Below, piece by piece: positions 1 through 11,110 of a stretch of 11,110 nt of DNA; position 1 is the stretch's first letter; every line of letters starts with the position of its first letter. Both the position numbers and the translations under genes were made by a program. The notes under the pieces are model-generated. The model ran no database searches and was not told the DNA's origin. It worked only from the letters and a program-made list of their open reading frames with translations. This stretch comes from Myxococcota bacterium (GTDB lineage: Bacteria > Myxococcota > JADLHZ01). The DNA lies in contig JBIKMD010000045.1 of the NCBI GenBank assembly GCA_044359465.1, positions 1 to 11,110 of the forward strand, written 5' to 3'.

Positions 1-64
1 ATTTCGCCCGTATCGCCGGGTAAAAACGGCTAAAACAGCGTGCAATGTCCTGCTCGTCAGCCAT

Positions 65-670
65 CTACTGAAGGCTGCACTTGTCGTTTGTACCGGTAAA
101 TAGTGTGCCCGCGCAGAGCTCCTGATAGTTGGAGCAGGAATCTTTTTCTTCGATCGTTGTTGGCGTTTCGCCGGCGCGCCCACAAGCGTTGTCGCCACCG
201 AGGTCGCAGTTGAAGCGGAGACGTGTTTCTATCGGGTCTTGTAGCGTCGCGAAGGTCGTTGACTGCAGAAACTCGCTGTCGAAGAAAACATCTGGGCTGG
301 GCGTGTCAACGTCGCGAAAGTCCGCGGCGCCTCTGGTCTCTCCGATGACCACGAGCTCCCCGGCTGGTGACGTCACGTAGTACTGCAGTGTGAGCTCGAC
401 GCGTGCTTTTTCTGTCACAGGACATTCGCCGCGCACAATGACAGTGCCGTTCTCTTGGAAGACGCTCATTAGGGGGCACGGTGTGTCGGAATTGGCAAAC
501 AGCACGCGTGCTTGAATCTGCTGCAGTCCTACGCACCCGGACGGTGGCTTCAGATCACCGCTGATTCTTGCCGTCAGCGAGTCGCTAATCTGTGTTTCAT
601 AGCGGGTGCCGCAATGGCAAAACGACAAAAGAAGAATGAAGTATTTCATTTGACCCATAGACGCCCTCAC
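65..670 (-). CDS. Secreted cysteine-rich hypothetical protein. It has an N-terminal signal peptide (MKYFILLLSFCHCG) and about 10 Cys. The track start at 670 is GTG; alternative ATG starts lie at 658 and 649 (MKYF...).
   Basis: 201-aa ORF from the track. It has a hydrophobic N-terminal h-region after Lys/Arg and an Asp/Thr/Gly-rich mature part with spaced cysteines. The stop is TAG at 65-67 on the minus strand. There is no lipobox consensus (LSFC has Phe at -1), so I call it type I secreted rather than lipoprotein. Confidence 0.55.
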   Translation of the reverse strand: MRASMGQMKYFILLLSFCHCGTRYETQISDSLTARISGDLKPPSGCVGLQQIQARVLFANSDTPCPLMSVFQENGTVIVRGECPVTEKARVELTLQYYVTSPAGELVVIGETRGAADFRDVDTPSPDVFFDSEFLQSTTFATLQDPIETRLRFNCDLGGDNACGRAGETPTTIEEKDSCSNYQELCAGTLFTGTNDKCSLQ

Positions 671-765
671 CGGGGGAAAGCGGACCGAATTATGGCTGCC
701 CCTGCAACATTAATTGAACCACCCAGCGCAGCGCGTTAGCAATCGCTCGGCGTGAATGTTCAGCC

Positions 766-780
766 GCGCGTTAAACGCGC
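766..780. promoter_or_regulatory. Perfect 15-bp palindrome GCGCGTTAAACGCGC, immediately followed by AGGAGG (781-786). It lies in the divergent intergenic region between the 65..670 gene and the SPFH gene.
   Basis: Read directly: 766 g pairs with 780 c, and so on through 772 t pairing with 774 a. The AT-rich core TTAAA is flanked by GC clamps. It is either an operator-like dyad or a small hairpin. Confidence 0.3.
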
Positions 781-867
781 AGGAGGCGGTCAGGACTACG
801 AGAATCGTCAATCCGTTTTTCCGCTGACCCTTGGCGCCACCACTTGGGCATTGGGGTCTTCACCGGC

Positions 868-896
868 CCCAGGGTTCGAATCCCTCCTTGAAAGAG
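868..896 (+). other. tRNA-like T-arm element (CAGGG-TTCGAAT-CCCTC) without a recognisable complete cloverleaf. It may be a tRNA 3' remnant.
   Basis: The canonical T-loop motif GGTTCGAATCC is at 873-883 with a 4-bp stem (AGGG/CCCT). The sequence that would be the acceptor 3' strand (CTTGAAA, 887-893) has no complementary 5' strand in the upstream 100 nt. There is no CCA. Confidence 0.2.
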
Positions 897-1112
897 GACA
901 TGGTTAACGGACGGCTTCTCGTGTTGTTGTAGGTGCGTGGACTAGGGCGAAAGCCCAGACATGAAGCGACTTTGCGCGGACGCAGATACCGCGCCTGCGC
1001 TGCAAAGCTGCTGGGGGGCGCTTTGCTCGCCGGCGCTCAAGCGTCCGCCCGTCGCGGAGTGTCGGTACACGCAGCGCTTCAGCGCGAGAAGTCGTCCAAT
1101 CAGGAGATCGCA

Positions 1113-2258
1113 ATGAAAGTCATCGCCGGGCTGCTCGCAACCAAAGTGACTGTCGCTTCCACCGAGCGCGTGTTTCACTTCGTCAATGAAGCTTTTGCTG
1201 ATCTCCTAGAGCCGGGTGTTCACACGTTTTGGGGCGCGGCCAGCCGGCACACCTTCACCGCGGTTTCGCTGGCGGAGCCGTTTCTCGTCGCACCAGACCG
1301 CGAATTGCTCGCCAAAGATCCTCGGCTCGAAGGGAAGCTCGAGCTGCATCAGATCAATGAGACGGAGCGTGGTCTTGTATCCAAAGGCGGCCGTCTCTTC
1401 GACATTTTGAAGCCGGGCGTGCAGGTGCATGTGAAGTCACCCATTCGCTTCGACATTGAAATCGTCGACATCGCCAAGAACTTCGAGATCCCACCCGCAC
1501 TCCGCGCGCGTTTGCAGGCCATCGGAAACTACGCGCAGCATGTGCGGACTTTCGAGGTGCCAAGCGGCAGCGCCGGGTTGCTCTACGTTGACAAAGTCCT
1601 GCAAGAGCGGGTTTTGCCGCCTGGCGTGTATGCCTATTGGATCGGCCCCGTAGACGTGCGCGTGGATGCGATCGATCTACGAGAACAAACCTACGAGGTC
1701 GCCGGTCAGGAGCTGATGACACATGACAAGGTGTCGATTCGCTTGAACCTCTCCGTCCGCTATCAAGTGACGGATCCAAAGCGCCTCGCGTCATCACAAG
1801 CAAACTACATGAGCGCTTTGCACAGGGATTTGCAGCTCGCGCTGCGCCAAGAGATCGCAGCGCTCACGCTGGAACAGCTGCTCGAAAAGAAGGACGCACT
1901 CGGCTCCGGCATCGTGTCGCTGGTGGCGCCGCAGACCGAAGCCTACGGTGTCAAACTACAAGCGACCGGCGTTCGTGACATCATCCTACCTGGAGAGATG
2001 CGCACCATTTTCAACCAAGTGATCGAGGCCGAAAAGCGGGCGCAGGCCAATCTCATCGCCCGTCGCGAAGAAACTGCGGCAACTCGCAACCTGCTCAACA
2101 CCGCTAAGCTGCTCGAGAATAATCCTATGCTGCTGCGTCTCAAAGAGCTCGAGATGACCGAACGCATCGCGGAAAAAATCGAGCATGTGTCAGTGTATGG
2201 CGGTGTAGACGCTGTGCTCGGTTTGTTGAAGCCAAGTGAAAAGAAGCCTAGTCCTTAG
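1113..2258 (+). CDS. SPFH / band-7 (stomatin-prohibitin-flotillin-HflK/C) domain protein. It has a ~190-aa N-terminal extension of unknown function and no obvious transmembrane helix.
   Basis: An ATG at 1113 is preceded by an AGGAG Shine-Dalgarno at 1102-1106. The track ORF 933..2258 starts at a GTG, which would add an Arg-rich 60-aa leader that I regard as unlikely. The C-terminal half (approx. residues 190-375 of the 381-aa product) has the hallmark SPFH pattern: YEVAGQELMTHDKVSIRLNLSVRYQVTDPKRL ... IILPGEMRTIFNQVIEAEKRAQANLIARREETAATRNLLNTAKLL. This is typical of HflC/stomatin/flotillin SPFH cores. Confidence 0.8.
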   Translation: MKVIAGLLATKVTVASTERVFHFVNEAFADLLEPGVHTFWGAASRHTFTAVSLAEPFLVAPDRELLAKDPRLEGKLELHQINETERGLVSKGGRLFDILKPGVQVHVKSPIRFDIEIVDIAKNFEIPPALRARLQAIGNYAQHVRTFEVPSGSAGLLYVDKVLQERVLPPGVYAYWIGPVDVRVDAIDLREQTYEVAGQELMTHDKVSIRLNLSVRYQVTDPKRLASSQANYMSALHRDLQLALRQEIAALTLEQLLEKKDALGSGIVSLVAPQTEAYGVKLQATGVRDIILPGEMRTIFNQVIEAEKRAQANLIARREETAATRNLLNTAKLLENNPMLLRLKELEMTERIAEKIEHVSVYGGVDAVLGLLKPSEKKPSP

Positions 2259-2302
2259 TTAAATTCACATGCTGATTTCGCGCGCTGCGCTTATCCTTTT
2301 GC

Positions 2303-5300
2303 ATGGCGGAACCCGTAGTCGAAGGCACAGCCGAGCGCCCGAAAGTCGCAAAGTCGGCCAGACCAGACGAACGTCGCAAGCAATGGCGCTTCTCCGATAC
2401 CTCTCGCGTCGAGTACATGGCGCAAGGGCGGCGCTCTGTTTCCTTCCTCGGTAACCTGTCGCTCGGCGGGTGTTTTCTTCGCAGCGCAGACACCCTGACA
2501 GTGGGTGCTGCGGCTGACTTCAATTTATACCTGGAGGACGGGCAACCACCGATTGTGGTCCGCGGTGAAGTGATTGACTGCCGCCGCGGCGGCGCGCACG
2601 TGCAGTTCTCGGCGGACCAAGAAGTGCCGTTGCTCAAGCTGCGTGACTTCCTCTCACGGGTCGTCGTGCCGAAGCTCGAAAGTAACGTCACCAGCACCCG
2701 TGGTGATCCCGTGCGTGTGCTGGAGCTTTCCGCTTGTTATCAAACACTCGACAGACATGAAGATGCACTCGCGCTGCACCGTCACTGGGCAGAAATGCGG
2801 GTGCGCGACCTACGATCGTGGGAGCAGCTCGCGAGCATGCTTCTGCGCCGCGCCGAAGCTGCAGACGTGGAAAACGCATGGAGCTGGCTCGAAGAGATTG
2901 AGAGCGTCCTCGTCAAGGCGCGTCGCCACGGTCTCAGCGAAGTCCTAGACGTCGTAGACAAGGCTGCCCAGAGTTTGCGCGGCCGTAGCGAGCGCCGTCG
3001 TCAAGAAACGCAGCAAAAGCAAGAAGCCCTCTTACTCGACATGCGCGTGCAGGCAGAAGTCGAGGCCAAGTTCCAAGCGCTCGAAGCCGAGCGACTAGCC
3101 AAATTCGAACGAGAAGCGGAGTCACTACGTGCGGAGCGAGAGCGTTTTGAAACGGACAGAGCGGCATTCATGGAGATGCGTGCGGGCTTCCAGAGCGAAA
3201 TGGACGAGCAGCGCGCGAAGGCCGAGGTTCTGGAGGCACGCGCTCGTGAGATTAGCCAGCTGGCTGAGGCAGCTGCTGCCAACGAGAACGCCGCGCGCGC
3301 TGCCCGCGAGCAAGCCGAAGATGTTCGTCGTTCGTTAGAACAACGCGAAGCGATGGTCGCTGCCTCAGAGCTGGCATTGCAGCAGCGCCAAGAGGCCGTG
3401 GCGGCGCTCGAGCCCTCGCTTGCTGCAAGAGCGCAGTCTTGTGAGACGCGCGAGCGCGAGCTCTCATTGCGCGATGAGGCGGTAAAGGAGCAAGCCGAAG
3501 CCCTACGTTCTCAGACGGAAGCATTGCGGTCGCAAAACGAAGCGTTAGAAGAGACACGCCGCGCGCTTCACACCAGCGAATTGGCGCTGGCTGAGGAACG
3601 GCGCGCACTCGAACACGCGCGTCATGAGCACCAGCAAGCCGTCGCTCGCGCGATGCAAGAGCGCGAATCGCTCGAAGGCGACGTTCGCGCGTTCGGCGAA
3701 CGGCAGACGGCCGAGCGTTTGGCGCTGCACTCAGCAAACGAACAGCTCACACAGACGCGCGAGCTGCTTGCGTCAGACCGTGAGCGCTTTGAAGACGAAC
3801 GTCGTGAGGCACGCGAAGCTCAGGAGAAGGCACGCACCGAGCTGCAGGCGCAACGCGCGGCGCTCGCTGATGAGCGCGCCGTGCTGGAGGTGCAAAAACG
3901 CGATCAAACAGAGGCTCAAGAAGCGCTCGCGATGCGAGACGCCACGCTGGAAGAGCGCGCCAAAGCGCTTGGCCAGGGTGAAGTGGCATTGAGCGCGCGC
4001 GATGAAGCACTCGGTCAGCGCGAACGGGGCGTGAGCGACAGTGAGCGTGCGTTGACCGATGCTCAACACGCGTTGAGCGAACGCGAACGAGGGCTGAGCG
4101 AACGCGAACGGGTGTTGAGCGAACGCGAACGAGTACTGAGCGAACGCGAACGGGTGTCGAGCGAACGCGAGGCCGCGGTAGCCCTGGCCGATGAAACCCT
4201 GGAGGCGAAGAGCAAGGCCCTCGAAAGCGATCGTGGCGCCATGGATGAGCTAGCGCGTGAAGTGGAAGCCAAGGAGAAGAAGCTCACTCACGACCGCAGT
4301 GTGCTCATGCGCGAGCGGGAAAAGCTCGTGCGTGACCAAAATGCGTTCCGAGCGCGTGAGCGAGACGTGAGCGAGCGCGAAACGAAGTTGCTCGTCGGAG
4401 AGGAATCGCTCGGCAAAGCACGTGATGCGTTGGAACGTGCCACAGATGCTTGGCGGCGTGATCGTGGCGCCCTCGACGAGGAACGCAGCACACACCTCTC
4501 TGCGCTTTGGACGCTAGCCATGGAGCGACAGCGTTTCTTGCTCGAGCACGATGACGCGTTGACGCGCCTTGGCGTGGATCGCGCATCGCTCGAGGCGACG
4601 CAGCGCGAGCAGGAGCGTCGCTCTGCAGCCTTGGCGGAAGATCGCGCGTCGCTTGCCAAGCGTGAAGAACACTTGGCGGCGCACCGGGCCGAAGTGGAAT
4701 CTTTGGCGGCGCGTGCCGAAGAAAAACATCTGCAGTCGACTGCGCTCGATGCAACGCTCGAAGAACGGCGTGAGCGCCATGAGTCGATCGAGCTCGAGCT
4801 TCGAGACAGAAGGGCACAGCTCGACAAACGCGACGCCGAGCTCACTGCGCTCGATGTTCGTGTGCGCGAGCTAGAAGCCGAGACTAAGGCGTTGAATGAG
4901 CGTTTGGCGCGACGAGAGGCGGAGCTCGGGACGCGTGATGCGCAGCTCGTCAGCAAAGATAACGAGCTTGCGCATCGGGACGATGCGCTCATGGCGAAGG
5001 ATCGTCAGCTCGCCGAGCGTGAAGACCAATTGCGAGCGGACGAGGCCAAACTAGCTGTGGCCCTGGCCGTTGCAGCGGCTGAAGCAGCGAGGGTTCAAGC
5101 GGAGGCGTCTGCGGCAGAAGCAGCCAAGCTGCGTGCAGAGGCCGAAGCGGCCGCCGCCGAGCTAGATGTGGACATCAACACGGAAGAACCGATGGTGGCA
5201 GCGTCGGTCGAGGTGGCAGCGTCGGTCGAGGCTAGTGTCGAAACCCCGTCGCCTTTGGTGGAGCTCGAAGCAGAGCTGGTGGCGGCGCCACCTGCAGCCG

Positions 5301-5416
5301 AACTAGAGGTCGATCTCTCCGACGCAAGCGATGATGATCATGATGATGTGCAAATTGATGACACGACGCTCACACCTGCAGCGCCGAACGACGAGATTCA
5401 AATCGACACCGAATAG
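2303..5416 (+). CDS. Giant (1037 aa) PilZ-domain protein. It has an N-terminal c-di-GMP-binding PilZ domain, an ~850-aa E/A/R-rich heptad coiled-coil stalk, and an acidic D/E-rich C-terminal tail.
   Basis: The PilZ signature motifs are present at the N-terminus: RxxxR (R-RKQW-R, residues ~25-30) and, ~20 residues later, (D/N)xSxxG (NLSLGG). These are followed by a beta-rich segment (IVVRGEVIDCRRGGAHVQF). The remainder is low-complexity coiled coil (ERERVLSERERVLSERERV, AEAEAAAAEL). The tail is DDDHDDVQIDD...IQIDTE. The gene lies 44 bp after the SPFH gene on the same strand. The next in-frame upstream stop is at 2273-2275, so the ATG at 2303 is the first canonical start. Confidence 0.8.
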   Translation: MAEPVVEGTAERPKVAKSARPDERRKQWRFSDTSRVEYMAQGRRSVSFLGNLSLGGCFLRSADTLTVGAAADFNLYLEDGQPPIVVRGEVIDCRRGGAHVQFSADQEVPLLKLRDFLSRVVVPKLESNVTSTRGDPVRVLELSACYQTLDRHEDALALHRHWAEMRVRDLRSWEQLASMLLRRAEAADVENAWSWLEEIESVLVKARRHGLSEVLDVVDKAAQSLRGRSERRRQETQQKQEALLLDMRVQAEVEAKFQALEAERLAKFEREAESLRAERERFETDRAAFMEMRAGFQSEMDEQRAKAEVLEARAREISQLAEAAAANENAARAAREQAEDVRRSLEQREAMVAASELALQQRQEAVAALEPSLAARAQSCETRERELSLRDEAVKEQAEALRSQTEALRSQNEALEETRRALHTSELALAEERRALEHARHEHQQAVARAMQERESLEGDVRAFGERQTAERLALHSANEQLTQTRELLASDRERFEDERREAREAQEKARTELQAQRAALADERAVLEVQKRDQTEAQEALAMRDATLEERAKALGQGEVALSARDEALGQRERGVSDSERALTDAQHALSERERGLSERERVLSERERVLSERERVSSEREAAVALADETLEAKSKALESDRGAMDELAREVEAKEKKLTHDRSVLMREREKLVRDQNAFRARERDVSERETKLLVGEESLGKARDALERATDAWRRDRGALDEERSTHLSALWTLAMERQRFLLEHDDALTRLGVDRASLEATQREQERRSAALAEDRASLAKREEHLAAHRAEVESLAARAEEKHLQSTALDATLEERRERHESIELELRDRRAQLDKRDAELTALDVRVRELEAETKALNERLARREAELGTRDAQLVSKDNELAHRDDALMAKDRQLAEREDQLRADEAKLAVALAVAAAEAARVQAEASAAEAAKLRAEAEAAAAELDVDINTEEPMVAASVEVAASVEASVETPSPLVELEAELVAAPPAAELEVDLSDASDDDHDDVQIDDTTLTPAAPNDEIQIDTE
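4075..4170 (+). repeat. 21-bp near-perfect tandem repeat (GAGCGAACGCGAACG + 6 variable nt), about 4.5 copies. It encodes the heptads SERERGL/SERERVL/SERERVL/SERERVS inside the coiled-coil gene.
   Basis: The 15-mer GAGCGAACGCGAACG recurs at 4075, 4096, 4117 and 4138, with a partial copy at 4159. The period is 21 nt, which is 7 aa, an in-frame heptad. Confidence 0.85.
5198..5231 (+). repeat. 18-bp tandem duplication (GCAGCGTCGGTCGAGG x2) encoding AASVEV/AASVEA near the C-terminus of the PilZ coiled-coil protein.
   Basis: Direct reading: gcagcgtcggtcgagg is at 5198-5213 and again at 5216-5231. Confidence 0.7.
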
Positions 5417-5470
5417 GCCAGCGCAGCGATTCTCACTGTTGATCGACTAGGGCCACGGCCACTCTGCTGC

Positions 5471-5496
5471 GAACTCGACACTCCGAGTGTGAGTTC
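5471..5496. terminator. Near-perfect 26-bp inverted repeat (GAACTC-g-ACACTC-c-GAGTGT-GAGTTC) in the convergent intergenic region. It is followed ~20 nt later by AATTTTT. Candidate terminator or protein-binding dyad.
   Basis: gaactc (5471-76) pairs with gagttc (5491-96), and acactc (5478-83) pairs with gagtgt (5485-90). There is a single bulged g at 5477. Confidence 0.35.
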
Positions 5497-5545
5497 ACAA
5501 CTTGAAGAAGAACCGAATTTTTCATGAAAGCGGGAGCCACAGTAG

Positions 5546-5570
5546 GCCGCCGGCACAATGGTCCGGCGCC
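5546..5570. terminator. GC-rich hairpin (GCCGCCGG ... CCGGCGCC, about 6-7 bp stem with a 9-nt loop) between the convergent PilZ-coiled-coil gene and the XRE regulator gene. Candidate bidirectional terminator.
   Basis: Stem pairs 5548-5553 with 5563-5568. There is no clear U-tract, which is common in high-GC genomes. Confidence 0.3.
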
Positions 5571-5595
5571 AGCTGAGCAGGAGGGCACGCTGAGC

Positions 5596-6033
5596 TTAGT
5601 TGGACGATTGCTTGAGCATGGCATCGACCCACTCTTGGACTTTATTCACCAAGAGATCGTGATGCCCTGCAGGCAACCTGCGCGCTTGCGCCAGTAGCTT
5701 TTGCTCTACCGGCGTTTGTGTGTCCGGGTAGTGCACAATTGACTCGCGCAGGAAATCTGGCGCGCTCTCGGCGAAGGCCAAGCGCAACACGTATTCCACT
5801 TCGCTCAGTTCGAAGGTCTTGCAGATGCGTCTCACGACATCCGCTGAAGGCTTGGACAGTCCAAGCTCCCATTGACCCACGTACCCGGCAGAGACGCTTA
5901 GCGCCCTGGCCATTTCACGCTGCGACATCTTGCGATCTTTACGCACGGCGCGAATTACATCGGAAAAGCGTTCGTACTGTTTGACGTCCACAAAGCTCCT
6001 CCCCATCTCGAAGTTCGCAGTGGGGTATAACAC
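5596..6033 (-). CDS. XRE-family (Cro/C1-type) helix-turn-helix transcriptional regulator, 145 aa, with a ~70-aa C-terminal domain of unknown function.
   Basis: HTH_XRE signature: MSQREMARALSVSAGYVGQWELGLSKPSADVVRRICKTFELS. The track start at 6033 is GTG. An internal ATG at 6006-6008 (MGRSFVDV...) is an equally plausible start. Confidence 0.8.
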   Translation of the reverse strand: MLYPTANFEMGRSFVDVKQYERFSDVIRAVRKDRKMSQREMARALSVSAGYVGQWELGLSKPSADVVRRICKTFELSEVEYVLRLAFAESAPDFLRESIVHYPDTQTPVEQKLLAQARRLPAGHHDLLVNKVQEWVDAMLKQSSN

Positions 6034-6473
6034 ACGCGATCTCGTTCCACCGCTCGATGTTTAGGCTCAAGCTAACGAAAACCGCTGGGACCACGCTTAC
6101 ATGCTTGATAGGCACAAGCAAGCCCCCCGCGATTCGATATGTGAGATTTAGCGATTGCGAGGAAGCTGTACACTTATTCATGAACTTTCTAGGCCATTTG
6201 TCTCTTGTCTTGGGGCGTCATTTGTCCTTGATTGACGGGTTGCGTTGCGCGCGGCCTGGATACTCGCAGAATTGATGGATGACATGGGCCTACATGCAGC
6301 AAATCTGGGCTCGGGGAGGGCGGCTTTGGCGCAAAACACTAGTGGAACGCTTGGTTTCGTCTGGCGCAGTCATCAGAATTCCGATCACGTTCGCTGGGAC
6401 GCCGAGTCGACGATGCGTGGGGCATCGCCCTTCATGCCGGCTGGCCCACGGGCGCGAGTGAAACGTTTACTCA

Positions 6474-6510
6474 GGTCATGGTCCATGTCATGGCGGTGAC
6501 GGAATGACCC
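6474..6510. promoter_or_regulatory. Cluster of GGTCATGG-like direct repeats (GGTCATGG-n5-TGTCATGG-n1-GGTGACGG-n1-ATGACC) abutting the start codon of the Cys-rich lipoprotein gene. Candidate response-regulator operator.
   Basis: Read directly: ggtcatgg at 6474-6481, tgtcatgg at 6486-6493, ggtgacgg at 6495-6502, and atgacc at 6504-6509 (which is the ATG plus ACC codon). The same 8-mer GGTCATGG and GGTGAC occur upstream of the 7912..9219 lipoprotein gene. Confidence 0.35.
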
Positions 6511-7412
6511 GCGCACTCTTTGTTCTTGTTCTTCTCTCTCCCTTGCTCTCCGCTTGTCAGAAGTCGGACTGCGAAGCGATCCGTGAGCACGCGACGGACT
6601 GCCGCAACGTTGCGAGCAATCCTGCCGGTCGCGACGGCGGGATTTGCGAGAAGTACCGCGACGTCAAAGGCAAGGCCGGCATGGAAACTTTCGCCACCTG
6701 CACGACGCGGCTTCGCTGTGATGACAAGGTTGGACTTGCCGCTTGTATCGACGAGTCGACCAATGCCGATGCGCCGGCGTGCGAACGCCTCAATGGCTAC
6801 TTGGTCGCTTGCGGCCTCGAGCCCGCGAGTGGCGGCCTTTCGTGCAGTGAGTACGGCGGAGCCGAGACGCTGCCTGCCTTCACTGGTTACGTGCAGTGCG
6901 TGATTGATCGCGGCTGTTTGACCGAAGCAGACACTGCCGCTGCGCTCGACGACTGTCGTAGCCAAACCCTTGGCAGCGCCGCCGCGACGTTCACGGCTTG
7001 TCAGCGGGTTGAGCAGCGCGCGCAAGCTTGCTCAGAGACGCAGCCGACGATTGCCACGTGCTCGCTGCAGATTGCGGCTTTCACGGCTGCCTCCGTAGAT
7101 AAATGGGCTGAATGTTATCTCGGTACCGAATGCGGTGATTTCACTGCACGCGCGCGCTGCGCCGAGCAACTCGAGCTAGCGCAAACGAGCGATGTAGGAA
7201 CGACGGCTGCGTGCAATAAAGTCGGTTTGTTTCAACTGCGCTGCGGCGTGCGAACGCTGCCTGTCATTGGTGACCCGGCGACTTGTGTGCGGTCGCTAGA
7301 CAATTTCAGCGACGACAGCGCCGGCGCATTTGCCGATTGTTTGCTCGAAGTCGAAGACTGCAATGATGCCGCGGGCCTGCTTAGCTGCGCCGGGAAGCTG
7401 CAAGCGAATTAG
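6504..7412 (+). CDS. Cysteine-rich lipoprotein (302 aa, 25 Cys) built from repeated C-x(6-11)-C-x(12-16)-C modules. Function unknown.
   Basis: Signal peptide with consensus lipobox: MTRALFVLVLLSPLLSA-C (L-S-A-C). The mature part has Cys spaced in recurring patterns (DCEAIREHATDCRN...GIC; ACIDESTNADAPACERLNGYLVAC; ECGDFTARARCAEQ...AAC; DCLLEVEDCNDAAGLLSC). The overlapping minus-strand ORF 6471..7025 has no such features. Confidence 0.75.
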   Translation: MTRALFVLVLLSPLLSACQKSDCEAIREHATDCRNVASNPAGRDGGICEKYRDVKGKAGMETFATCTTRLRCDDKVGLAACIDESTNADAPACERLNGYLVACGLEPASGGLSCSEYGGAETLPAFTGYVQCVIDRGCLTEADTAAALDDCRSQTLGSAAATFTACQRVEQRAQACSETQPTIATCSLQIAAFTAASVDKWAECYLGTECGDFTARARCAEQLELAQTSDVGTTAACNKVGLFQLRCGVRTLPVIGDPATCVRSLDNFSDDSAGAFADCLLEVEDCNDAAGLLSCAGKLQAN

Positions 7413-7631
7413 CGCCCTCACTTAGCTTGCTGCGCTGAAACGTGAGCGTTTGGATCGGCAAGCCGGGCTCGATCATGTGCGCCATTTCGGTGGACTTCAC
7501 GCTCGTCGGTATCGGCCGACGCGTCCGCGAGTCCCTTGCGTCTAGAGGAGAGACGCACTTTGTCACGTTTGCTTGTCACCGTGGAGCGATGGACTCGGCT
7601 AGGCTGGCCCTCGCGCGCTCAGACGGTTAAG

Positions 7632-7889
7632 ATGCAGCGCATGAAACTATTCATCCTTGCCGTTGCCGCCGCGACTTCTTTGTTTGCCTGCGCGCCCGCC
7701 AAAGACAGCTCGCGCTGGACACCCTACGCCGGCTGCGGTGAGAGCCAGTGCCGCAGCTGGAACTCGTCGTGCGAAGCCGATTGTATGAACAAGAGTGTTC
7801 GCAAAGACACGGTGAATGCCGATGAGTGTATGAGTGTGTGTGGTTCGAAGATGAGCGAATGCAAACAGTCCTGCACCGCAATCAACTAG
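7632..7889 (+). CDS. Small secreted lipoprotein (about 85 aa precursor) with four C-x3/4-C pairs (CGESQC, CEADC, CMSVC, CKQSC). Twin-Cx3C disulfide mini-protein.
   Basis: The track ORF 7536..7889 starts at a TTG and has a 32-aa non-signal leader. Internal ATGs at 7632 (MQRMKLF) and 7641 (MKLF) give a proper signal peptide with lipobox-like L-F-A-C (MQRMKLFILAVAAATSLFA-C). I chose the ATG at 7632. Confidence 0.6.
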   Translation: MQRMKLFILAVAAATSLFACAPAKDSSRWTPYAGCGESQCRSWNSSCEADCMNKSVRKDTVNADECMSVCGSKMSECKQSCTAIN

Positions 7890-7911
7890 CAGAACGAGTC
7901 AATACGTGTAG

Positions 7912-9219
7912 CTACTTGGGTCTCAGCTCAATCGGTGAGTCCGTCAGATCTACCTCTTCCCCAGCCGCAACATCGACAAAGCGTTGAAGCCCTAACTCGC
8001 GCGCGCTGTAGCCTTCGTAGTCTTTTCCTCCAAAGCTCGTTTGCAGTGCGATGAAGTACCTGCCGGGTGGTACCGCGATGACAAAGGTTCCATCGTAGAG
8101 CGTTTCGTCGTTGTAGAAGTCGCGAGCTGCAGTGGGGGGAACGAAGGGTCCAATGCCGAAGCCGGCAGGTCTCGGATCTTTGCCATCAGGCAGTGCGAAC
8201 GCGATCGGCTGTGCGTTGGGGATACCGGGCACGGGAAGGTGGCGGCCGCGAATGAACCCTAAGGGCACCGCTGGCGGCTCGGTGACGTGGCTATGGCAGA
8301 CAGTGCACGAGCCATTGCCGATGCGTCCGTCTGAGCTGAAAGCGCGCGCCTTGGGAACGCCGAGCGCATTGATGCCCGCGGACCCGAGCGCGTACTCGGT
8401 GCCATCGGTGAAGCCTGCTGCTACAGCGTCAGTGTTGTTGAGCCTACGTTCGACTTCTGCGCGCCAAGGCCAAGAGAAGGCCGCGTTGCTCCAGATTGCA
8501 GTGTAGTACGAGCGCTGCGCTAAGGTTTTGTCTCCGCGCCGAAGGGCAAGATCGCCGATCATGGCCTGCATTCCTGCAATGTTGTTTGGCGCGATGGGGG
8601 TGTCCCAAATCCGACGCGATCGTTCTAGCGTGAGGGGATCACGCGAGCCCTGCAGCCTCGCCGTATCAGCAACGACTTCGTCGAAAGCCGCCGCGGCTTC
8701 TTCGAGCATGGCCGGGGTCGCGTTCGGATCGCCGCCAGTCGAGAGCGTCACGCCAAAGAGCGTGAAAGCGCCGTAAGTCATCGTTGTGGGCCGAATGCCG
8801 TCGAGCGCGCCAGCAATCGCGTCCGTGCGTCCGAGCGCGCGGGCTTCGAAGAGAAACAAGGTCGCCCGCCAGAGTGGCAAGCGTGCGTCGTCAGGAAAAT
8901 AGGGAATCGCCGCATCAAACGCTGCGACGCCCTCTGCGACGTACTCAGTCCGATCGAGCTCGGCGAGCGCCATGAGTGCGGCGGCGCCAATGGCGCGTGC
9001 GCGTTCTGGGCTGTCCGGAACGTCCTCATGCAAGAAACGCCAAACAGCATCGAAGGCGGCAACATCATAGTTCAGCGCCCAAATGACATCTGCCATGGGG
9101 TAACTGACATCTCGAGGTTGCGGGGGCGCGGTTTGGGCTTGGGTGTAGGAAGCAGGCGCCGGCCGGCGAACCTCAGCCGCGGTACACGCGATCAACAACA
9201 GACAAAGGAGAGCTTTCAT
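7912..9219 (-). CDS. Lipoprotein (435 aa). It has an Ala-rich helical (TPR-like) N-terminal half, a single CxxCH haem-c binding motif (GSCTVCHSH), and a beta-rich C-terminal domain. Function unknown.
   Basis: Signal peptide plus lipobox: MKALLCLLLIA-C (L-I-A-C). There is one CTVCH motif (CxxCH). The gene lies immediately downstream of, and co-oriented with, the response-regulator gene (78-bp gap). Confidence 0.75.
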   Translation of the reverse strand: MKALLCLLLIACTAAEVRRPAPASYTQAQTAPPQPRDVSYPMADVIWALNYDVAAFDAVWRFLHEDVPDSPERARAIGAAALMALAELDRTEYVAEGVAAFDAAIPYFPDDARLPLWRATLFLFEARALGRTDAIAGALDGIRPTTMTYGAFTLFGVTLSTGGDPNATPAMLEEAAAAFDEVVADTARLQGSRDPLTLERSRRIWDTPIAPNNIAGMQAMIGDLALRRGDKTLAQRSYYTAIWSNAAFSWPWRAEVERRLNNTDAVAAGFTDGTEYALGSAGINALGVPKARAFSSDGRIGNGSCTVCHSHVTEPPAVPLGFIRGRHLPVPGIPNAQPIAFALPDGKDPRPAGFGIGPFVPPTAARDFYNDETLYDGTFVIAVPPGRYFIALQTSFGGKDYEGYSARELGLQRFVDVAAGEEVDLTDSPIELRPK

Positions 9220-9254
9220 GACCTGAGCATAGTGAACTCATCGGCAGTGCCTAT

Positions 9255-9297
9255 CCGTCAAAGGTCATGACCAGAGGTCACCCCTCACCCATGACCC
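9255..9297. promoter_or_regulatory. Motif cluster upstream of the haem-lipoprotein gene. It contains the perfect palindrome GGTCATGACC (9263-9272), GGTCAC (9276-9281), and GGTCATGG on the gene strand (revcomp of 9289-9296). GGTCATG also overlaps the start codon (revcomp of 9217-9223).
   Basis: On the gene (minus) strand the region reads TGAGGGTCATGGGTGAGGGGTGACCTCTGGTCATGACCTTTGACGG ... CAGGTCATGAAAGC. It shares GGTCATGG, GGTGAC and TTGACGG with the 6474-6510 cluster. Confidence 0.35.
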
Positions 9298-9933
9298 TCA
9301 ACCATAACCCAACGATTTACCCTTGAGCGCCGCTTGGGTGCGGTCGCTGACCTCCAGCTTTACCAAAATACCGCTGACGTGGTTCTTCACGGTACCTTCA
9401 CTAAGGTACAGCGCGGCTGCGATTTCTTTGTTGGAAGCGCCACGGCAGATGAGGCGCAAAACGTCGTTCTCTCGCTCGGTGAGCGGATTAGGAGGCGCTG
9501 CCGGGCGTGTTTGCACGCGGGCAAGCTCTGCTAGCACCTTGCTCGCGACGGTCGGATCCAGAAACGATTGGCCCGCGGCGGCGGCGTGCACGGCTTCGCG
9601 TAGGCGTTCGCCGGTGGCGTCTTTTAGCAAATAACCCACGGCTCCGGCGCGCAGTGCTTCGAAGATGGAAGCATCATCGCCAAAGGTCGTCAGCATGAGC
9701 ACGCGGCACGATGGCAGGCTGATGCCCAATCGTCTTGTTGCCTCGATTCCGTTCATGCCGGGCATTTGCAAATCCATGAGGACGACGTCTGCCCGATGCA
9801 ACACACAGGCCGCCACGGCCGCTTCACCGTTTCCCGCATCTGCGACGACTTCGAGCGTTGGATCCACGCTGAGGACCGCGCGGAGCCCTTCGCGAAACAA
9901 CGGTTGGTCGTCCGCTACGACAACACGGGTCAT
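9298..9933 (-). CDS. NarL/FixJ (LuxR-type HTH) family two-component response regulator. Receiver domain plus a C-terminal LuxR-type DNA-binding domain.
   Basis: REC motifs: VVVADDQPLFREG ... VVLMDLQMPGMNG ... LTTFGDD ... VGYLLKD. LuxR-type HTH: LTERENDVLRLICRGASNKEIAAALYLSEGTVKNHVSGILVKLEVSDRTQA. Its ATG (revcomp of 9931-9933) overlaps the kinase TGA (revcomp of 9930-9932) as ATGA. Confidence 0.9.
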   Translation of the reverse strand: MTRVVVADDQPLFREGLRAVLSVDPTLEVVADAGNGEAAVAACVLHRADVVLMDLQMPGMNGIEATRRLGISLPSCRVLMLTTFGDDASIFEALRAGAVGYLLKDATGERLREAVHAAAAGQSFLDPTVASKVLAELARVQTRPAAPPNPLTERENDVLRLICRGASNKEIAAALYLSEGTVKNHVSGILVKLEVSDRTQAALKGKSLGYG

Positions 9934-10763
9934 GCTGGCACGCTCACTTTTACGCTGAAACCGCGGCTACTGGGCGTGATGTTCACTGTGCCTCCTACGA
10001 GCTCAACGCGCTCGCGCAGGCCGGTCAACCCGTTGCCTGGCTGCCAAGTCGCCGCGGCGTTCACGCCGTCATCCTGAATCTCGAGGAGCAGGTGCTTTGG
10101 TGCGTAAGTGAGCCGAACAGAAACGACCTTCGCATCAGCGTGCTTGCGCGCATTGGTGAGCGACTCTTGCGCCGCGCGATAGACGACAAATGCAGCGGCG
10201 CCTGGAACCGAACGCACTTCGCCGAACGACTCGAGCACGACGTGCAGTCCAGTGCTCTGGGTGTCTGCGATCAGCGCAAGAAGTGCCTCGCCGAGTGGTT
10301 TCTCCGACGTTTCGCGTAGCATGCTCACGGAACGGCGCAGCTCGGATAACGCTTCGCGAATGAGCGCTTGCACCTGCGTTAGGCGCTCAGCTGACCCTAT
10401 GGGGTTTGCGCGCGCCGCTTCGAGCTGAATGCTCGCCACGCTCAGGCTGTGGCCGAGACCATCATGGATCTCTCTCGCAATACGATTACGCTCGCGTTCG
10501 GCGCTCAGCGCTTCGATTTCGAGCCGCGCTTTCATTTCTCGTTTGGCGACGAGCGTGAAAATCACCACGAAGGCAAAAGCCGAGGCGATGCCTGCGAACC
10601 CATTCGGTGAACGCGAGATGAGGACGCTGAACGCAGCGGCGACCACGACGCCAACGGGAAGCGGGAAGAACAAAACCAAGGTGCTAACGAAGGGCATGCT
10701 GACGATGAAGCTGCTGCCCTTGGTCAAGATGACGATCGACGCGGCAAGCACGCCATAGATCAC
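9930..10763 (-). CDS. Membrane histidine kinase of the HisKA_3 (NarX/DesK/LiaS-like) type. It has 3-4 N-terminal transmembrane helices with very short loops, a HisKA_3 H-box and an HATPase_c domain.
   Basis: H-box: ERERNRIAREIHDGLGHSLS. ATPase motifs: NARKHADA ... DDGVN ... GNGLTGLRERV. The N-terminal part is almost entirely hydrophobic (IYGVLAASIVILT, FIVSMPFVSTLVLFFPLPVGVVVAAAFSVLI, GFAGIASAFAFVVIFTLVA). The track start is GTG at 10761-10763. The frame stays open upstream to 10973 (see findings). Confidence 0.85.
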   Translation of the reverse strand: MIYGVLAASIVILTKGSSFIVSMPFVSTLVLFFPLPVGVVVAAAFSVLISRSPNGFAGIASAFAFVVIFTLVAKREMKARLEIEALSAERERNRIAREIHDGLGHSLSVASIQLEAARANPIGSAERLTQVQALIREALSELRRSVSMLRETSEKPLGEALLALIADTQSTGLHVVLESFGEVRSVPGAAAFVVYRAAQESLTNARKHADAKVVSVRLTYAPKHLLLEIQDDGVNAAATWQPGNGLTGLRERVELVGGTVNITPSSRGFSVKVSVPA

Positions 10764-10973
10764 GATGCAGGTGTTGATGAGCGCTGTGTTCTGCTTTTGT
10801 TCAGCGAACCTTAGTCCAACTGAGCCCGTGAAGAGCAGCGCCGTCGTTAGCGCGACCAGCAGCGGGCGCTCCGCGCTTTCGATCGTGGTAGGCCTTGCGC
10901 GGCGCCCACAAGGATGGCGACCACGCTCGCAAGCGTTGTTTCTGCCGTGATGAAGCGCGGGCCGCTCAAGTGA

Positions 10974-11110
10974 TCAGAGGCTGGCGGCGATGAGCTCGGC
11001 GACGTCTTTGGCGCCCACTTTGTCATCCATGCCTTTGTCCTTGATGCCGTCGCCGAGCATGGTGAGGCAGAACGGACACGCGGAGCCTACAGTATTTGGA
11101 TTCTTGGCTA
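10974..11110 (-). CDS. C-terminal fragment (44 aa, 5' part outside the window) of a CCG-domain (Fe-S)-binding oxidoreductase. The family is HdrD/GlpC/GlcF/LutA-like.
   Basis: My own translation of the minus strand in the frame ending at TGA (revcomp of 10974-10976) gives ...AKNPNTVGSACPFCLTMLGDGIKDKGMDDKVGAKDVAELIAASL*. The CPxCxxxL segment near the C-terminus is the terminal CxxC of the CCG (Cys-rich) domain. The ORF is absent from the track because it is incomplete. Confidence 0.45.
   Translation of the reverse strand, partial: AKNPNTVGSACPFCLTMLGDGIKDKGMDDKVGAKDVAELIAASL

Follow-up and report, generated by a model that had tools for sequence, protein, structure and literature searches.

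A PilZ coiled-coil protein encoded next to a stomatin-like SPFH protein in a Myxococcota bacterium: a candidate c-di-GMP-responsive scaffold cassette

Are the two neighbouring genes at positions 1113-2258 and 2303-5416 of contig JBIKMD010000045.1, from a Myxococcota bacterium (assembly GCA_044359465.1), the two halves of a flotillin, or do they form a system of a different kind? The stretch of DNA analyzed, hereafter the window, comprises the 11,110 nucleotides from position 1 to 11,110 of the forward strand. The first gene (gene 1) encodes an SPFH protein and the second (gene 2) a very large coiled-coil protein that begins with a PilZ domain, the type of domain found in receptors of cyclic di-GMP (c-di-GMP), a second messenger. 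A first-pass annotation, made from the letters alone, read the pair as a flotillin divided over two genes and gated by c-di-GMP. The results presented here point elsewhere. With moderate confidence, the two genes are considered a cassette of narrow phylogenetic range and very probably an operon, in which a coiled-coil scaffold that putatively responds to c-di-GMP would be linked to a soluble SPFH oligomer.

Both open reading frames (ORFs) were found at the annotated coordinates and on the same strand (+). They are separated by a gap of 44 bp (2259-2302, +) without promoter or terminator match, a layout typical of an operon and one that had been correctly described. The consensus matches nearest to the gap lie within gene 1, one resembling a promoter (2095-2123) and the other a weak hairpin (2195-2217); matches of both kinds are at the level of shuffled sequence (2 promoter-like sites found against 0.8 expected, and 8 hairpins against 6.4). 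No obvious Shine-Dalgarno sequence for gene 2 was seen in the gap. Gene 1 has an AGGAG ribosome-binding site at about 1101-1105 (+), 7 nt 5' of the ATG at 1113. The ORF listed by the program starts at a GTG at position 933, 60 codons further upstream; the homologues all start at ATG 1113, which is taken as the true start because both their alignment and the AGGAG site support it.

Gene 1 (1113-2258, +) encodes a stomatin-like (slipin) SPFH protein of 381 aa with no transmembrane segment. Residues 148-320 match the Pfam Band_7 family (PF01145) with an E-value of 1.1e-29 and 104 bits, the cut-off being 23.6, thus upholding the original domain assignment. More than 5000 homologues were found, mostly of 370-382 aa, which carry the NCBI name "slipin family protein". 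Since so many proteins of similar length align with it from end to end, gene 1 is judged to encode a complete protein and not a fragment. The best relatives of solved structure, by sequence, are the stomatin core of Pyrococcus horikoshii (2.9e-21) and human stomatin; the latter (9oh9) aligns to residues 159-368 of gene 1, reaching residue 296 of the 308 in its chain. An AlphaFold2 (AF2) model built with 44 homologues (pLDDT 87.4) gave stomatin as the top Foldseek match (E 3e-15), with flotillin at rank 38. Membership in the flotillins, judged by the closest SPFH domain, was accordingly rejected, stomatin being nearer both by sequence and by fold.

The AF2 model divides the gene 1 protein into three parts. 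Its N-terminal part contains two extra beta modules, residues 10-52 and 76-119 (1140-1469, +), delimited by the modelled strands. The strands with which the SPFH domain opens recur in these modules, pairwise local alignments scoring z 3.9-5.2 above shuffles, and homologues of about 520 aa have more copies of them. The SPFH domain proper follows at residues 144-291 (1542-1985, +), and then two C-terminal helices at residues 294-336 (43 aa) and 338-355 (18 aa; both within 1992-2177, +), counterparts of the wall and cap helices that solved SPFH proteins use to oligomerize. A membrane hairpin or transmembrane anchor was not found in the protein, in which the maximum Kyte-Doolittle score over 19 residues is 1.15. 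Gene 1 is thus of the stomatin type, with its own oligomerization helices and with beta modules in place of the membrane hairpin. Its product is read as cytoplasmic and, by analogy with the solved assemblies of stomatin, HflK/C, and QmcA, is expected to form a large ring or cage.

Gene 2 (2303-5416, +) encodes a protein of 1037 aa in which a PilZ domain is followed by a TPR-like helical domain, then by a coiled coil and finally by an acidic tail. The PilZ domain (PF07238; residues 23-116; 2369-2650, +) is recognized by Pfam with an E-value of 2.2e-10 and 41 bits against a cut-off of 22.5. It is related to the myxobacterial PilZ paralogue family TIGR02266, with a score (30.2 bits against a cut-off of 68.7) that makes it a non-member. 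The two motifs for c-di-GMP binding are intact, as had been claimed: RRxxxR is present as R24-R25-x-x-x-R29 (2372-2389) and NxSxxG as N51-x-S53-x-x-G56 (2453-2470). Both are invariant in four close homologues, and in 30 distant ones the conservation of R25, R29, S53, and G56 is 90% or more. In an AF2 model of residues 1-250 (30 homologues; pLDDT 92.5, pTM 0.83), the PilZ beta-barrel occupies residues 35-102 (block pLDDT 97-98) and is followed by the canonical C-terminal PilZ helix at 107-130. The top Foldseek matches of this head are PilZ structures with bound c-di-GMP, namely 8u0i, 4rt0, and 5xly (PA0012, Alg44, and MapZ), with a TMt of 0.84 for PA0012 bound to c-di-GMP. Judged by domain and motifs, gene 2 encodes a putative c-di-GMP receptor. 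Some PilZ proteins with these motifs bind c-di-GMP weakly.

Packed on the PilZ barrel in the model is a TPR-like domain of four helices (residues 136-207; 2708-2923, +). Foldseek also matched the whole model, weakly, with TPR domains from FKBP51/52 and CHIP, and one homologue, P0146, has a Pfam TPR_14 match. From residue 213, a helix continues into the rod. The coiled coil, defined by a strong heptad autocorrelation, spans residues 236-925 (3008-5077, +), with a hydrophobic autocorrelation of 0.38 at lag 7, 0.36 at lag 14, and 0.34 at lag 21, a single proline, and a composition of 18% A, 18% E, 15% R, and 12% L. The coiled coil named by the first-pass annotation is therefore real; the length it gave, 850 aa, is not, as the coiled coil amounts to about 690 aa and the rest corresponds to the TPR-like domain and a 112-aa acidic tail. 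If continuous, the rod would be about 100 nm long. Its sequence diverges fast between orthologues, and residues 236-925 found no sequence match in the PDB at E<=1e-3. Kinship of the rod with SMC, FlbB, or Cbp1 was rejected, as the NCBIfam matches were far below their cut-offs and were attributed to coiled-coil composition. Within the rod lies an in-frame 21-nt tandem repeat (4072-4170, +; Tandem Repeats Finder score 145-177) that encodes SERER(V/G)L heptads, with 4.6 copies and 86-94% matches, which suggests a recent expansion of the rod by a slippage-type process. Orthologues differ in length, with 1037 aa in the window and 962 aa in a related locus (L005).

The acidic tail (residues 926-1037; 5078-5413, +), rich in Ala, Glu, and Asp and with a net charge of -28, is probably disordered. 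It ends in DEIQIDTE (5390-5413), and the orthologue of L005 ends in ...EDIEIDTEELAS (at about 10010-10051 of that locus); this end motif is kept between the two proteins although the tail is otherwise poorly conserved. The motif might serve as a docking peptide, the TPR-like domain of the same protein being one conceivable target. TPR clamps bind EEVD peptides, and the combination of a TPR-like domain with an acidic-hydrophobic C-terminal peptide suggests a possible peptide clamp, working head-to-tail or with a partner, an idea based on weak fold matches.

The two genes are conserved as a unit in relatives. In loci L002 and L005, which represent one lineage, the SPFH protein is 69-70% identical to that of the window and an orthologue of the PilZ coiled-coil protein follows, 19 bp away and on the same strand. 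For L003, whose SPFH protein is 64% identical, the distance to the orthologue that follows is 67 bp. The pair was thus seen in three distinct lineages, those of the window, L002/L005, and L003. The L005 orthologue of gene 2, of full length (BLASTP E 1e-107), shares about 60% identity over the head and about 35% overall. When every gene of the window was searched by tblastn in the L002/L005 and L003 loci, only genes 1 and 2 were found, indicating that the flanks have been reshuffled around an intact pair. The sequence of the gap itself is not conserved. A genome scan with the SPFH protein returned eight loci, with the pair only in L005. The pairing is real and is confined to a narrow clade.

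The family to which gene 2 belongs barely shows in word-indexed homologue searches, which, with the PilZ N-terminus, gave one match with the single sequence and three with a profile. It was revealed by an exhaustive phmmer comparison of gene 2 residues 1-245 with 1.84 billion representative sequences, which gave the family at least 103 representatives at E<1e-3 (P0122-P0223 among them) and 43 at E<1e-10; the latter all keep the TPR-like domain. The match is nearly always N-terminal and covers residues of about 22-240. The common plan runs from a PilZ domain through about 100 residues of helical domain to a coiled coil of highly variable length, with total lengths from about 400 to 1579 aa; a close relative of 212 aa, P0122, lacks the rod. 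The C-termini also vary. A transmembrane segment occurs downstream of the rod in 16 of 39 long representatives, which fits the logic of a tether with an anchor, and in other members, as in the window, the tail is acidic and carries a short hydrophobic-acidic motif (the two kinds of end are exemplified by P0127, P0135, P0144, and P0160 versus P0130, P0131, and P0145). The gene of P0130, a distant family member of 828 aa, lies within L019 1-8487 directly 3' of a chemosensory cluster on the same strand that encodes a HEAT-repeat protein, CheR, CheB, a GAF protein, and a receiver protein. A scan of metagenome DNA with the PilZ alignment added a single short contig, L018, with a peptidoglycan-binding-like ORF upstream. 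This family of PilZ/TPR-like/coiled-coil proteins has apparently not yet been described.

How might the two proteins of the proposed cassette work? Within the PilZ barrel, c-di-GMP would be bound by the linker with RRxxxR together with the strand that carries NxSxxG, and the bound head would present the adjoining TPR-like surface differently. This change would switch a protein-protein contact at one end of a tether of about 100 nm. The rod is presumably dimeric, with the PilZ and TPR-like domains at its tip; in many relatives its far end is a membrane anchor, and here it is an acidic tail that closes with a short hydrophobic-acidic motif. Because anchors of this kind are found in many relatives, a role as tether or scaffold is the most economical reading. 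In the clade with the pair, the co-expressed SPFH oligomer would be the most likely partner or platform of the tether, taking the role of the transmembrane anchor. A more specific version is improbable as it stands: gene 1 would form a soluble, vault-like SPFH cage, and gene 2 a c-di-GMP-switched tether of about 100 nm, docking on the cage through its head or through the acidic IxIDTE peptide. As a related option, the rods could possibly self-assemble head-to-tail, the TPR-like domain of one binding the acidic tail of another.

Several observations weigh against the cassette, and most of them also speak for neighbours by descent, the main rival, in which the two proteins act independently, with unrelated functions, and are adjacent through the recent common ancestry of the three lineages. 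Both families are normally unlinked. None of the SPFH homologues of 51% identity or less is followed by a PilZ coiled-coil gene, either in the Myxococcota-like genomes (L004, L013, L015) and L016 or in L006-L012, which come from cyanobacteria, Competibacterales, and Phycisphaerae; the downstream genes there are convergent or unrelated. Viewed from the other side, no SPFH neighbour was found for the five family members with a readable upstream gene (P0130, P0128, P0138, P0122, and that of L018; for P0133, the upstream sequence is too short to judge), and other members with an acidic tail are also without one. Outside the clade, then, the two families were never adjacent at the loci examined. 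Local profiles detected no fusions: an SPFH domain was absent from all 103 PilZ-family proteins, as was a PilZ head from the 120 SPFH homologues. The pairing is present in about four protein clusters among 5.8 billion proteins, in just three independent lineages, and because it is so rare it could be inherited gene order. The missing Shine-Dalgarno sequence of gene 2 and the unconserved gap agree with independence as well. The role of the SPFH protein as a platform is, moreover, a conjecture, because gene 1 itself has no membrane anchor. What speaks for the cassette is that order, strand, and a gap of 19-67 bp have been kept although the flanks are wholly different, persistence amid changed flanks being the usual signature of selection on an operon; the gap, in addition, lacks a terminator or promoter match. 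On balance, simple co-inheritance is regarded as somewhat unlikely.

A further possibility is that gene 2 encodes a motility or polarity scaffold like AglZ or FrzS, with a PilZ head that reads c-di-GMP, and that the SPFH gene is incidental or accessory. In its favour are the matching architecture, a signalling head on a very long coiled coil, and the regulation of motility by PilZ proteins in Myxococcus xanthus (PMC8316039). The source is also probably Myxococcota-like, given the TIGR02266 match and the naming of SPFH relatives as Myxococcota or Polyangiaceae, and P0130 is encoded directly after a CheR-CheB-GAF-REC cluster. Such a chemosensory context was seen in one of the five readable cases, however, and no motility genes are present in the window or in its 18-kb source context; gene 2 lacks a receiver domain, and homology with AglZ or FrzS was not detectable, the analogy being drawn from general knowledge. 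This explanation is considered improbable. The split flotillin with which the present question began, in which the PilZ coiled coil would be the stalk of the SPFH core and replace the EA-rich flotillin domain, fares worse still. It has in its favour the E/A/R-rich coiled coil that follows an SPFH gene, and giant bacterial flotillins with expanded coiled coils of 800-1000 aa do exist (PMC2636767). Yet gene 1 is of full length for its family and has C-terminal helices of its own, neither protein has a Flot match (Pfam, E<=0.1), the rod has no sequence match in the PDB, and the rod family occurs independently of SPFH genes. There is no membrane anchor, nor is there an NfeD partner in the window or its 18-kb source context, and no fused intermediates were found. 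By the account of the first-pass annotation, its reading would fall if the pair were never syntenic in relatives and fused flotillin-like homologues did not exist; half of this applies, as the pair did prove to be syntenic, in a narrow clade only, and fused homologues were never encountered. On the grounds of family membership, the completeness of gene 1, and the lack of a Flot domain and of fusions, the split-flotillin model was rejected and is given very little credence.

The surroundings of the pair were also inspected. Directly upstream of gene 1 is an intergenic region (671-1112, +), bordered by a divergently transcribed gene and read directly from the sequence, which is presumed to hold the promoter of the pair; a promoter scan of this region gave no sigma-70-like match, and no tRNA or Rfam family was found in it. 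The region contains a perfect hairpin resembling a T-arm, AGGGTTCGAATCCCT, at 871-885. The candidate tRNA remnant GGTTCGAATCC at about the same position (871-885) was rejected, as ARAGORN and Rfam, the latter with permissive E-values, call no tRNA or tmRNA; without such a call, the hairpin is treated as probably due to chance. Convergent to gene 2 is a gene for an XRE-family helix-turn-helix (HTH) protein (5596-6033, -), with only generic HTH matches to PADLOC regulators (the capH and RmrA models). PADLOC defence-system models gave no match for gene 1 or gene 2 at E<=0.01, and membership of either gene in a defence system was rejected. Two cysteine-rich ORFs without a Pfam match follow at 6504-7412 (+) and 7536-7889 (+). 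The one of 302 aa has a lipoprotein-like signal at its start (…LLSAC), and that of 117 aa a signal-like stretch (…ATSLFAC). Finally, a two-component pair at 9298-10763 (-) consists of a histidine kinase (HisKA_3) and, overlapping by 4 bp, a response regulator of the NarL/GerE type. No genes for GGDEF, EAL, or HD-GYP proteins are present in the window or its 18-kb source context.

To our knowledge, SPFH proteins occur in every domain of life, and the regulators of the bacterial ones are largely unknown. If the two proteins of the cassette cooperate, c-di-GMP signalling would be linked to an SPFH scaffold. Should the vault-like cage prove true, an SPFH compartment would be assembled or positioned under the control of a second messenger, which would add a new class to the outputs of c-di-GMP and give bacterial SPFH assemblies their first defined regulatory ligand. 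Regardless of the pairing, the analysis has value for annotation, as it delimits a family of putative c-di-GMP receptors on very long coiled coils, ending in a transmembrane anchor or an acidic tail, and also a large family of stomatin-like proteins that lack an anchor and vary in how many beta modules they carry at the N-terminus. Both families are apparently uncharacterized so far. The practical value is limited, as the pair is rare and comes from metagenome-assembled genomes of uncultured organisms only, and the functional link between the two proteins is one that we infer.

In a survey of prokaryotic SPFH proteins published in 2009, NfeD was the only conserved operon partner, and a PilZ coiled-coil partner was not reported for any subfamily (PMC2636767). 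Two of the subfamilies defined there, SPFH8 and SPFH9, are small, probably soluble, and without documented members (PMC2636767), and the family of gene 1 may correspond to these 'soluble' groups. A survey of PilZ domains mentions neither coiled-coil nor SPFH contexts, nor the architecture of gene 2 (10.1101/814665). In a systematic study of the PilZ proteins of M. xanthus, the word "coiled" is absent from the text and "TPR" occurs once, in a title of the reference list (PMC8316039). No paper joining PilZ with SPFH was found in the literature searched.

Among known systems, the prokaryotic stomatins (PH1511 of P. horikoshii and QmcA of E. coli) and human stomatin share with gene 1 the SPFH domain followed by a long and a short helix. 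Gene 1 differs from them in having no hydrophobic hairpin or transmembrane segment and in carrying two beta modules derived from the start of the SPFH domain, and its downstream partner is the PilZ coiled-coil protein in place of NfeD. The flotillins (FloT/YuaG, FloA, YqiK, and flotillin-1/2) belong to the same superfamily and, as here, have long E/A-rich helical regions. In flotillins, however, SPFH domain and stalk form one polypeptide with a flotillin domain, which is absent from both proteins of the window; an anchor in the membrane and an operon partner of the NfeD type, both usual for flotillins, are likewise lacking in the present pair. Membership in the major vault protein (MVP) family was rejected as well, as sequence profiles detected no vault repeat and no MVP shoulder.

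The PilZ receptors PA0012, PA4608/MapZ, Alg44 (its PilZ domain), and YcgR have the same fold as the head of gene 2, in which both motifs stand at the usual spacing. The difference lies in the output, which in gene 2 is a TPR-like domain and a coiled coil of about 690 residues, whereas canonical receptors act through an enzyme or a secretion component, or as stand-alone adaptors. Alg44 does join PilZ to a coiled-coil (HlyD-like) region, but it is a membrane-fusion protein of a different kind. As a comparison from general knowledge, AglZ and FrzS of M. xanthus also place an N-terminal signal-receiving domain on a very long coiled-coil scaffold; their head is receiver-like, in contrast to the PilZ and TPR-like head of gene 2, no homology has been established, and the locus shows no link to motility genes. 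Set against all these systems, what is new here is a variation on known types: a PilZ receptor whose putative scaffold output is unusual, a stomatin-like protein whose N-terminus departs from the norm, and the rare, lineage-specific pairing of the two.

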